Origin: Escherichia coli
GTDB taxonomy: Bacteria > Pseudomonadota > Gammaproteobacteria > Enterobacterales > Enterobacteriaceae
Assembly (NCBI RefSeq): GCF_022846255.1
Contig: NZ_AP025682.1
Strand: one strand, 5' to 3'
Length of the DNA stretch: 64,000 nt
Positions 37,201 to 40,200 of the stretch are shown piece by piece (position 1 is the first letter of the stretch; each line of letters begins with the position of its first letter). A program made the position numbers.

Positions 37201-40200
37201 TCTTAATTATCGTGGAGCTTACGGTAATACGAATGTCGGTTACAGTCGGAGTGGTGACAGCAGCCAGATTTATTACGGAATGAGTGGTGGGATTATTGCT
37301 CATGCTGATGGCATCACCTTTGGACAGCCGCTGGGCGACACAATGGTTCTGGTTAAGGCTCCTGGCGCTGATAATGTCAAAATAGAGAACCAGACCGGAA
37401 TTCATACCGACTGGCGTGGCTATGCCATATTACCATTTGCGACAGAATATAGAGAAAATCGTGTCGCTCTTAACGCGAATTCCCTTGCAGATAATGTTGA
37501 ACTGGATGAAACCGTAGTCACTGTCATCCCAACTCACGGTGCTATTGCCAGAGCAACATTTAATGCACAAATCGGCGGGAAAGTATTAATGACGTTGAAG
37601 TACGGTAATAAAAGCGTTCCATTCGGTGCAATTGTCACTCACGGAGAGAATAAAAATGGCAGCATTGTCGCGGAAAATGGTCAGGTTTATCTGACTGGAC
37701 TTCCACAGTCAGGGAAATTACAGGTTTCATGGGGCAATGATAAAAACTCAAACTGTATTGTCGATTACAAGCTTCCTGTAGTCTCTCCTGGAACCTTGCT
37801 GAACCAGCAGACAGCAATCTGTCGCTAAGGAACAATAGATTATGAAATACAATAACATTATTTTCCTCGGTTTATGTCTGGGGTTAACCACCTATTCTGC
37901 TTTATCCGCAGATAGTGTTATTAAAATTAGCGGGCGCGTCCTCGATTATGGCTGCACAGTCTCATCGGATTCGCTTAATTTTACCGTAGATCTCCAAAAA
38001 AACAGTGCCAGACAATTTCCAACGACCGGTAGCACAAGTCCAGTCGTCCCTTTTCAGATTACATTAAGTGAATGCAGCAAAGGGACAACGGGAGTTCGGG
38101 TTGCATTTAACGGTATTGAGGATGCAGAAAATAATACTCTGTTGAAACTAGATGAAGGAAGCAATACGGCCTCCGGTTTGGGTATAGAAATACTGGACGG
38201 AAATATGCGTCCGGTGAAATTGAATGACCTTCATGCTGGGATGCAGTGGATCCCATTGGTACCAGAACAGAACAATATTTTGCCTTACTCCGCTCGTTTG
38301 AAGTCAACTCAGAAGTCCGTCAATCCAGGACTGGTGAGCGCTTCGGCAACCTTTACCCTTGAATTTAAATAATCAGAGTCAGATATGAAAAGACTTCACA
38401 AGAGGTTCCTGTTAGCTACGTTTTGCACATTATTCACAGCAACTCTCCAGGCCGCCGATGTCACTATCACTGTTAATGGTCGGGTAGTCGCTAAACCATG
38501 CACTATTCAAACCAAAGAAGCTAACGTTAATCTCGGGGATCTTTATACACGCAATCTGCAACAACCTGGTTCTGCATCTGGCTGGCACAATATTACTTTG
38601 TCATTAACCGATTGTCCGATTGAAACAAGTGCAGTGACGGCAATCGTGACAGGTTCAACTGACAATACGGGTTATTACAAAAATGAAGGTACTGCCGAAA
38701 ATATTCAGATAGAGCTAAGGGATGACCAGGATGCGACGTTAAAAAATGGCGATAGCAAAACGGTTATTGTTGATGAGATCACTCGTAATGCACAGTTTCC
38801 ACTTAAGGCAAGAGCTATCACGGTGAATGGAAACGCAAGCCAGGGTACGATCGAGGCGCTAATCAATGTGATCTATACCTGGCAATAACATCAATTTGAT
38901 TTTATTTTCCTCCTTTTTAAATCAATTTTTTAACCTTAGGATATATCATGGGTAAAACATTCAGTATAAAGGTCCTGTTCGGTATTTATCTTCTATTAAT
39001 TGCAGGCAAAGTTTTTGCCTTCAGTTGTAATGTCGATGGCGGGTCAAGTATTGGAGCAGGTACAACCTCTGTTTATGTTAATCTCGATCCTGTAATACAA
39101 CCGGGCCAGAATCTGGTTGTAGACTTGTCTCAGCATATAAGTTGCTGGAATGATTACGGCGGCTGGTACGACACTGATCATATAAACCTGGTACAAGGAT
39201 CAGCTTTCGCAGGCTCCCTACAGTCATATAAAGGATCACTGTACTGGAATAATGTGACCTACCCTTTCCCGTTGACGACAAATACCAACGTATTGGATAT
39301 TGGTGATAAGACACCGATGCCATTACCGTTAAAACTCTATATTACCCCAGTCGGAGCGGCTGGTGGAGTTGTCATAAAAGCAGGGGAAGTTATTGCCCGT
39401 ATTCATATGTATAAAATTGCCACGTTAGGAAGCGGAAATCCGCGTAATTTTACGTGGAATATTATTTCAAATAACAGTGTTGTTATGCCAACAGGCGGTT
39501 GCACCGTTGATAGTCGTAATGTCACCGTGAATCTCCCGGACTTTCCTGGAAGCGCAGAAATACCCCTTGGTGTATATTGCTCTAGCGAACAAAAGCTCTC
39601 ATTTTATCTTTCGGGTGCCACCACTGACAGTGCCCGACAAGTGTTTGCTAACACAGCACCAGATGCAACAAAAGCATCGGGCGTGGGTGTCTCTCTGATG
39701 CGTAATGGAAAAACACTGGCAACAGGAGAAAATGTCTCCCTGGGGACAGTAAATAAAAGCAAAGTACCTCTGGGTTTAAGCGCAACCTATGGACAAACAG
39801 GAAACAAGGTTGCAGCCGGAGCCGTCCAGTCAGTCATTGGTGTCACTTTTATCTATGAATAATTGTGATTTTGACATTAGTCTATGCGCTCCATTCACGA
39901 AAATTGCGCGGATAATTATTTTGTGAAGGCTATTATCCTACACTTGTAAGAAAATCCGCGCACAATTGAAGCCAGAGTCTTATTTTTTATATTGAGAATT
40001 ATGTTAATTTAAACCCTATGAGAGATGATGCTTAACTTATCGTATTTATACTACTCTATTATTTAACGATAATAGAGTAAAAATAGTAAGAGAGTAGTCC
40101 CCTACTCTTATATATCCATGTTGACGATAAACCCTATGTATATACTGTGCATCATCGCTATTACAAATCCTAATAATTCATTTCCACACAGGATAAGCAG

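Follow-up and report, generated by a model that had tools for sequence, protein, structure and literature searches.

Two nested palindromes lie upstream of ydeP in Escherichia coli and raise the question of whether they act as DNA, e.g. as a tandem operator for a regulator, or as RNA, within a structured 5' untranslated region (UTR) of the ydeP mRNA. We addressed this question computationally in a 64,000-nt stretch of a Nissle-type (B2) E. coli genome (assembly GCF_022846255.1, contig NZ_AP025682.1; hereafter the window), in which ydeP (40201-42480, plus strand, 759 aa, as annotated in the identical Nissle 1917 record) is followed downstream by safA and ydeO. The palindromes reside in the 338-nt intergenic stretch 39863-40200, between the end of the fimbrial gene ydeQ (39862) and the ydeP ATG (40201), which is a 100% match to E. 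coli Nissle 1917 and is present in 5327 of 5426 complete E. coli genomes. The ydeP gene is required for glutamate-independent acid resistance and serves as a standard reporter of EvgS/EvgA signalling. Our best-supported overall reading is that the region specifies an ordinary structured 5' UTR, a common kind of feature, confined to Escherichia and to one gene. With moderate confidence, we propose that the palindromes are part of a ydeP mRNA leader of ~183 nt and that any function they have is that of RNA stem-loops.

The palindromes upstream of ydeP are not a product of base composition

An earlier description of this region (the sequence-only reading) had reported a perfect 11-bp inverted repeat with a 6-bp spacer at 40052-40079, and both our own reading and a repeat search found this element. 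Its 11-nt arms, TACTCTATTAT (40052-40062) and ATAATAGAGTA (40069-40079), are 100% complementary and are separated by the spacer TTAACG. The second palindrome of that description, aagagagtag-tcccc-tactctta, was also found, one base away from where it had been placed (40088-40110), and within it is a perfect 7-bp dyad, AGAGTAG-TCCC-CTACTCT (40091-97/40102-08), with a 4-nt spacer. As had likewise been stated, the hexamer TACTCT or its complement AGAGTA occurs four times within 60 bp, at 40052(+), 40074(-), 40091(-) and 40103(+), spanning 57 nt, and the palindromes, which had been located 90-150 bp before the start codon, measure 93-149 nt from the ydeP ATG. The 64-kb window holds 20 copies of this hexamer in total, 4 of them in the ydeP leader. 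When the stretch 39863-40200 was subjected to 2000 dinucleotide-preserving shuffles, 3 of them produced a perfect inverted repeat of 11 bp or more around a 3-10-nt loop, and 19 contained a hexamer that, counting its complement, was present in four non-overlapping copies within 60 nt. This rarity indicates that the palindromes are not a chance outcome of AT-rich composition.

The fourfold TACTCT pattern proved to be specific to the B2/Nissle-type haplotype. The arms of the first palindrome in K-12 are TAATCTATTGT and ATAATAGATTA, and only 659 of the 5327 E. coli genomes (~12%) match the window at 99% identity or more over 40030-40125. Thus, the perfect TACTCT form of the first palindrome, and hence the pattern of four hexamers, is confined to a B2-type minority. 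A dispersed repeat related to repetitive extragenic palindromic (REP) sequences or miniature inverted-repeat transposable elements (MITEs) was ruled out, as the element occupies a median of one place per genome and a maximum of two in the 5327 E. coli genomes.

The palindromes are predicted to be transcribed with ydeP

A 2024 study of CsrA used a K-12 ydeP "5' leader" probe that extends from -178 to +10 (188 nt; PMC11210196). The K-12 leader carries a 5-nt deletion relative to the window, so that -178 in K-12 corresponds to -183 here, which would put the transcription start at ~40018 (plus strand), the A of a 5'-terminal AUG. With this start, the palindromes would be transcribed, at +35 to +62 and +73 to +92 of a ~183-nt leader.

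A comparison with the safA promoter agreed with this start. The ydeP (39935-40036) and safA (42598-42700) promoters are collinear and ungapped from the EvgA box to ~+19, with identity at 67 of 106 positions in register versus 25-31 out of register. The EvgA box of ydeP, ATCCTACA-CT-TGTAAGAA (39935-39952, plus strand), which the sequence-only reading had also placed there, is in register with the safA box and has one mismatch to TTCYTACA-N2-TGTARGAA, reportedly the consensus of Itou et al. 2009. Extended -10 elements (TGTTAATTT in ydeP and TGTTATATT in safA) and a common 10-mer, GATGCTTAAC, follow at equal distances from the two EvgA boxes. The putative ydeP element, TG-T-TAATTT (40002-40010, plus strand), is aligned with TG-T-TATATT of safA and lies 7 nt before the proposed start; the alignment therefore supplies a TGnTAxxTT -10 element just 5' of 40018, in agreement with the start derived from the probe. 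A promoter scan did not list the element at 40002-40010, and its promoter-like matches were at the level of shuffled sequence. Near emrK, frc and yfdX in K-12, EvgA boxes were accompanied neither by the ydeP/safA architecture nor by GATGCTTAAC. From sequence, the promoters of ydeP and safA look duplicated, unless they have in common a hitherto unrecognised element at the beginning of the transcribed region. The likeness of the safA-ydeO leader to that of ydeP stops at ~+20, and it differs from the ydeP leader in having no counterpart of the hairpins HP1 and HP2 or of the 3' arm of helix P1 described below.

Other sequence features were observed around the start. A perfect 9-bp G+C-rich inverted repeat, TGCGCGGAT (39905-39913) and ATCCGCGCA (39954-39962), with 40 nt between its arms, flanks the EvgA box; it is upstream of the proposed start, and its right arm in a divergent Escherichia genome (L004) is ATTCGCGCA. 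An exact 11-nt direct repeat, TAAACCCTATG, occurs at 40010-40020 and 40128-40138 (spacing 118 nt) and reads TAAACACTATG and TAATCCCTTTG in K-12, suggesting that it is a lineage-specific chance occurrence. The predicted transcript opens with AUG AGA GAU GAU GCU UAA (40018-40035), possibly a leaderless 5-codon mini-ORF (open reading frame) that covers the P1 5' arm; it is nearly invariant over the 24 haplotypes introduced below, although its stop codon is UAC in L056 and L059 (O55:H7), which lengthens the frame.

Both palindromes form hairpins in the predicted leader fold

In silico, the window leader folded with a minimum free energy (MFE) of -41.7 kcal/mol (z = -3.15; 1 of 200 shuffles equally good) and the K-12 leader with -40.5 kcal/mol (z = -3.85; 0 of 200). 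Three plus-strand helices, P1, HP1 and HP2, were present in both the MFE and the centroid structures of both leaders. P1 is a long-range helix formed by an inverted repeat, AGAGAUGAUGC (5' arm, 40021-40031) and GCAUCAUCGCU (3' arm, 40149-40159), which joins +4 to +14 with +132 to +142 in 10 of 11 pairs; its 5' arm is invariant and has a pairing probability of at least 0.94 in all 24 haplotypes. The first palindrome becomes HP1 (40052-40079), with a 12-bp stem (40052-63/40068-79), a 4-nt loop and a stability of -12.1 kcal/mol in the window. The second becomes HP2 (40090-40109), GAGAGUAG-UCCC-CUACUCUU, with 8 bp (40090-97/40102-09) that include one G·U. Between them is an A-rich linker of five A-R-N triplets, AAA-AAU-AGU-AAG-AGA (40079-40093, plus strand; AAA-AAU-AGA-AAG-AGA in K-12), that overlaps the foot of HP2. 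Its triplets make it a possible Hfq distal-face site.

According to the model that we propose, the leader would fold in the cell into P1 enclosing HP1, the single-stranded linker and HP2, with HP2 and P1 as the conserved core and HP1 as an accessory hairpin. The role of this domain would most likely be post-transcriptional: a compact leader shape may guard against decay and/or present the linker and the ribosome-binding region.

Other candidate elements were set aside. Helix P2 (40037-43/40124-30) was dropped because its pairing probability is low and it is broken in divergent lineages. An RNAalifold consensus contained a weak helix between a possible anti-Shine-Dalgarno sequence (AUCCU, 40167-71) and the Shine-Dalgarno sequence (SD; AGGAU, 40190-94), within 40167-40194 of the plus strand; this helix was also dropped, given its pairing probabilities of 0.01-0.46, and the block that contains it is conserved (see below). 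A cmscan search of Rfam with 39500-40600, on both strands and with an E-value limit of 10, found no family, and its three matches were at chance level (15.6-19.1 bits versus thresholds of 40-80). A scan for intrinsic terminators found none on the plus strand; its only matches, 40106-40085 and 40108-40091, are on the minus strand, and the T-run begins 7 nt past the shorter of these two stems, which corresponds to HP2.

The palindromes lie in constrained sequence, and the spacers drift

We compared 24 distinct Escherichia leader haplotypes, taken from complete E. coli genomes picked across identity bands, from L004 (YdeP 95% identical) and from metagenome contigs fetched by a 19-nt pattern that lies outside the tested structures. 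Among the metagenome haplotypes are those of another divergent lineage, L104, and of a further L004-clade member, L161. Between the window and L004, 133 of 346 fourfold-degenerate ydeP sites differ (38.4%), and this rate was the reference for binomial p values of the leader blocks. HP1 differs at 5 of 28 positions and HP2 at 3 of 22 (8/50 together, p = 5e-4). The 5' 21 nt of the leader differ at one position and the P1 3' arm at 0 of 14 (both P1 arms, 1/35, p = 1e-6), and the 3' 41 nt of the leader, the block with the weak SD helix, at 6 (p = 8e-4). The spacer 40111-48 (17/38) and the segment 40037-51 (7/15) differ at frequencies in line with the fourfold-degenerate rate. HP1 plus HP2 and P1 thus fall below the synonymous rate and the spacers at it, i.e., constrained blocks are divided by freely drifting DNA. 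P1 is possibly a conserved element alongside HP2.

The HP2 stem is invariant in every sampled E. coli haplotype, and the hairpin is kept in all 24 leader haplotypes, with pairing probabilities of at least 0.72. Where the stem does change, the result is a G·U or an improved pair. In L104, the G·U has become a G-C through a U-to-C change and the stem has gained a U-A through an A-to-U change, for a total of 10 bp and -13.4 kcal/mol. The L004 clade has lost 2 nt of the loop and has an A-to-G change that makes a G·U, and its hairpin re-registers to 7 bp plus a tetraloop. The loop itself varies among UCCC, UACC, CCCC and GCCC. Over all stems, changes mostly keep plus-strand pairing: G·U states occur at eight stem pairs and C·A states at three. 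Because a G·U on the plus strand is an A·C on the other strand, and so is asymmetric in DNA, these states are soft evidence for plus-strand RNA. The change of HP2 spacer length in L004 with the hairpin kept is soft evidence of the same kind.

HP1 is kept far more loosely. Its hexamer is TACTCT, TAATCT or TATTCT, depending on the lineage, its stability ranges from -1.7 to -12.1 kcal/mol and its pairing probability from 0.00 to 0.98. The pair that includes the C of TACTCT is C-G in the window, A-U in K-12-type haplotypes and U·U in a third group and both divergent lineages. K-12-type haplotypes also have an A-to-G change (G·U), and their 5-nt deletion lengthens the stem to 14 bp. We read HP1 as a loosely conserved hairpin that was strengthened independently in the B2 lineage, giving the perfect TACTCT form, and in that of K-12.

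Outside of Escherichia, the DNA upstream of ydeP in Edwardsiella, Yersinia, Raoultella, Tatumella and Burkholderiaceae loci is unrelated to this leader, and nhmmer detected no similarity; YdeP itself is 85% identical in Edwardsiella and 67% in Yersinia rohdei. The leader is thus genus-specific, and a comparison of the repeats across Enterobacteriaceae, as the sequence-only reading had proposed, is not feasible; of the conservation that it had called for in ydeP orthologues, what is found is within Escherichia, for HP2 firmly and for HP1 loosely.

Three independent rearrangement breakpoints cluster at HP2 (~40085-40112), in E. coli CFSAN027343 (L060), NCTC9113 (L061) and a metagenome contig (L182). 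The end of IS1203, an IS3-family insertion sequence, lies inside the HP2 5' arm, and the junction with foreign sequence is immediately 5' of HP2 in L061 and immediately 3' of it in L182. All three part ydeP from its usual upstream sequence, including the promoter in L061 and L182.

Evidence that weighs against an RNA role

Several results count against the proposal that the palindromes act as stem-loops of the mRNA. The start at 40018 is derived from the boundaries of a probe. Folding of the minus strand is almost as favourable as that of the plus strand (z = -2.73); palindromes fold on either strand, so that thermodynamics alone cannot assign the strand. In the 24 haplotypes, 94% of stem cells form standard pairs, but none of five covariation measures exceeded a column-shuffle control, and only one pair is changed on both sides among these closely related sequences; the sequences are too similar for significance. 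The excess of G·U states keeps plus-strand RNA pairing and breaks DNA dyad symmetry, but a count of eight versus three is only suggestive. Natural haplotypes exist in which HP1 is weakened or lost, through an internal U·U (L058-type) or a C·A (L055), and in L104, where HP1 has eight changes, the predicted probability of the reference pairs is 0.00. With sequences this closely related, a constraint on the DNA could equally account for the conservation of P1 and HP2. A part of the P1 5' arm, GATGC (within GATGCTTAAC), also occurs in the safA leader, where there is no downstream GCATC partner, and the invariance of this arm may thus have a promoter-proximal cause. Finally, CsrA does not bind the ydeP leader (PMC11210196).

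Some of these results would be expected if the palindromes had no specific function and were by-products of mutation in AT-rich intergenic DNA, with repeats perfected by template switching during replication, an explanation that we consider unlikely. The polymorphism of HP1, in its hexamer as in its stability, fits this explanation, as do the eight differences that L104 carries in the 28 HP1 columns, compared to 14.8% at fourfold-degenerate sites, and the lack of significant covariation. The K-12 deletion and T-to-A change jointly extend the dyad, as templated correction would. However, neutral drift does not explain why HP1 plus HP2 and P1 fall significantly below synonymous divergence while the adjacent spacer does not, or why the HP2 stem does not vary across the sampled E. 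coli haplotypes, and the A-to-G change in K-12 HP1 worsens the DNA dyad yet retains an RNA G·U pair.

Alternative explanations for the palindromes

A tandem operator on the shared TACTCT had been suggested by the sequence-only reading, together with a structured 5' UTR, of which the latter is now the best supported. In the operator explanation, which we regard as improbable, a dimeric factor, e.g. of the NarL/FixJ type, would recognise either dyad, or both, past the start and would block or modulate transcription. Both palindromes are indeed dyad-symmetric and non-random, and HP2 is invariant in E. coli. However, the hexamer is not kept in HP1, and the premise of a tandem operator therefore fails, although a protein might still bind HP2 as DNA. 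Half-site orientation is opposite in the two dyads (TAC is outermost in HP1 and innermost in HP2), and their spacings are unequal. In several lineages, a single half-site is altered, which in the DNA would be a G·T, and the HP2 spacer is 2 bp shorter in the L004 clade, which would rotate the half-sites.

The NarL heptamer is TACYYMT, which TACTCTA and TACTCTT resemble. As a NarL/NarP 7-2-7 site, the palindromes were nevertheless rejected: by sequence, the HP1 heptamers are 14 bp apart, those of HP2 have reversed orientation and a spacing of 6 bp, heptamer position 6 is T and not A or C, and K-12 HP1 has lost TAC. The EvgA box is likewise unlike either dyad: HP1 and HP2 share at most CCTAC with one of its half-sites and lack the other. 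YdeO was reported to repress ydeP indirectly (PMC11210196), so that another repressor may exist. As far as Burton (2010) is cited in PMC7174508, the ydeP promoter is not regulated by GadE, GadW, GadX or RpoS, which removes the obvious candidates for binding an operator.

Alternatively, the leader might be a downstream silencing region for H-NS, conserved for DNA shape or H-NS nucleation, which we find quite improbable. The leader is very AT-rich, and CGATAA/TTATCG occurs in it three times (40038-43, 40067-72 and 40125-30). This hexamer partly resembles the high-affinity H-NS motif, TCGATAAATT. Moreover, ydeP belongs to a horizontally acquired, EvgA-activated island, with the 85% identical YdeP of Edwardsiella in another context. 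H-NS binding tolerates drift, however, and therefore leaves unexplained why the G+C-containing HP2 stem and P1 arms are invariant while the AT-richer spacer drifts.

That HP2 is a transcription attenuator is very improbable: the HP1 5' arm could alternatively pair with the HP2 5' arm (40050-61 with 40087-98, 92% complementary in the window) and HP2 is followed by UAUAUAU, but there is no plus-strand terminator in the scan, the HP2 tail has no U-run, the alternative pairing is limited to the B2 haplotype and lost in K-12, where the HP1 5' arm is TAATCTATTGT, and the accessible part of the eLife 2021 E. coli 3'-end mapping supplements, in which ydeP is barely expressed, lists no ydeP 3' end.

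Relation to known mRNA leaders

Among leaders of known function, we compared that of ydeP with the ompA 5' UTR, whose stem-loops reportedly protect the mRNA against RNase E (Emory, Bouvet and Belasco 1992). Both leaders are long (133 nt in ompA and ~183 nt in ydeP), both have two stem-loops with a single-stranded A/U-rich segment between them, and in ydeP the 5' end is predicted to be paired near +1, with P1 beginning at +4. They differ in that there is no sequence relationship, and the 5' end of ydeP would be held by a long-range helix and that of ompA by a local hairpin. By this analogy, our best guess is that the structures shape and stabilise a long leader, and possibly also present an A-rich site to Hfq. 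The latter would recall leaders controlled by Hfq and small RNAs, of which rpoS is an example, with an (ARN)n Hfq site beside hairpins; the five A-R-N triplets between HP1 and HP2 are the corresponding feature in ydeP.

A small RNA is in fact linked to ydeP, as RyhB represses ydeP in Shigella (Oglesby 2005, as cited in PMC3071730). Unlike in such leaders, the best predicted RyhB duplex is in the ydeP coding region and not at the hairpins: it involves 40226-40252 (codons 9-17) at -23 kcal/mol, approximately the lowest 0.1-1% of 30-nt windows in the 64 kb. This candidate site is doubtful, because its seed, GGGAGC, is GGGTGC in K-12. Pairing of RyhB at the hairpins was rejected, as the best leader site, at -13.7 kcal/mol, is inside the background (mean -10.1, standard deviation 3.8).

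Cleavage by MazF could also concern this leader. A table of the MazF regulon gives the value 13 for ydeP (PMC5001579), which we read as cleavage 13 nt before the start codon, at an ACACA (~40186-40190) upstream of the SD. If this reading of the table is right, cleavage there would strip the entire structured leader from the mRNA.

A 28-codon ORF (40118-40204) has a stop codon that overlaps the ydeP start (ATGA), as the end of evgL overlaps evgA in the K-12 annotation. The evgL ORF is described as translationally coupled to evgA (PMC11210196). The ORF upstream of ydeP differs from evgL in having neither a conserved start codon nor an SD. Its ATG is ATA or AGG in seven haplotypes, the window and K-12 differ in it by 4 non-synonymous changes and 1 synonymous change, and the L004 differences in its conserved part are all non-synonymous. 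We conclude from these patterns that it is probably not a gene.

A more ambitious proposal would be that the leader is an Escherichia-specific regulatory RNA, in which the P1/HP1/HP2 domain and the mini-ORF at the 5'-terminal AUG gate YdeP synthesis post-transcriptionally, with acid, iron (via RyhB/Hfq) or the loading of ribosomes at the 5' terminus as conceivable signals. We regard this as a long shot. A search of the available literature found no paper that ties ydeP to a riboswitch, attenuation or Rho.

Other features of the ydeP locus

A perfect 12-bp inverted repeat, TTCTTCTGCTGT-CATCCGC-ACAGCAGAAGAA (42494-42524), begins 14 nt past the ydeP stop codon and is probably the ydeP terminator hairpin; no T-run follows it. 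Upstream, the fimbrial usher gene ydeT (35177-37828) is intact in the window (883 aa) and is a 382-aa fragment in K-12, beside the yneL pseudogene. In Edwardsiella spp. (L005, L006 and L008), YdeP is 84-85% identical to that of E. coli, the upstream DNA is short, unrelated and G+C-rich, and the neighbouring genes differ, which suggests that ydeP was transferred horizontally without the EvgA-dependent leader. A K-12-type E. coli ydeQ-ydeP region (YdeP 99%) was also seen on a contig (L003) of a metagenome-assembled genome labelled 'Candidatus Nanosynbacter', almost certainly through contamination during binning.

Implications for ydeP expression

To our knowledge, work on ydeP has so far handled its expression as promoter-driven alone. 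The practical stake of a structured leader is modest, as it concerns a single gene in a single genus. The leader is one obvious place to seek the mechanism of RyhB repression. If HP2 and P1 affect mRNA stability or translation, then a translational ydeP fusion would not be equivalent to a transcriptional one, and the differences in HP1 among B2, K-12 and O157 could yield strain-specific expression of ydeP.

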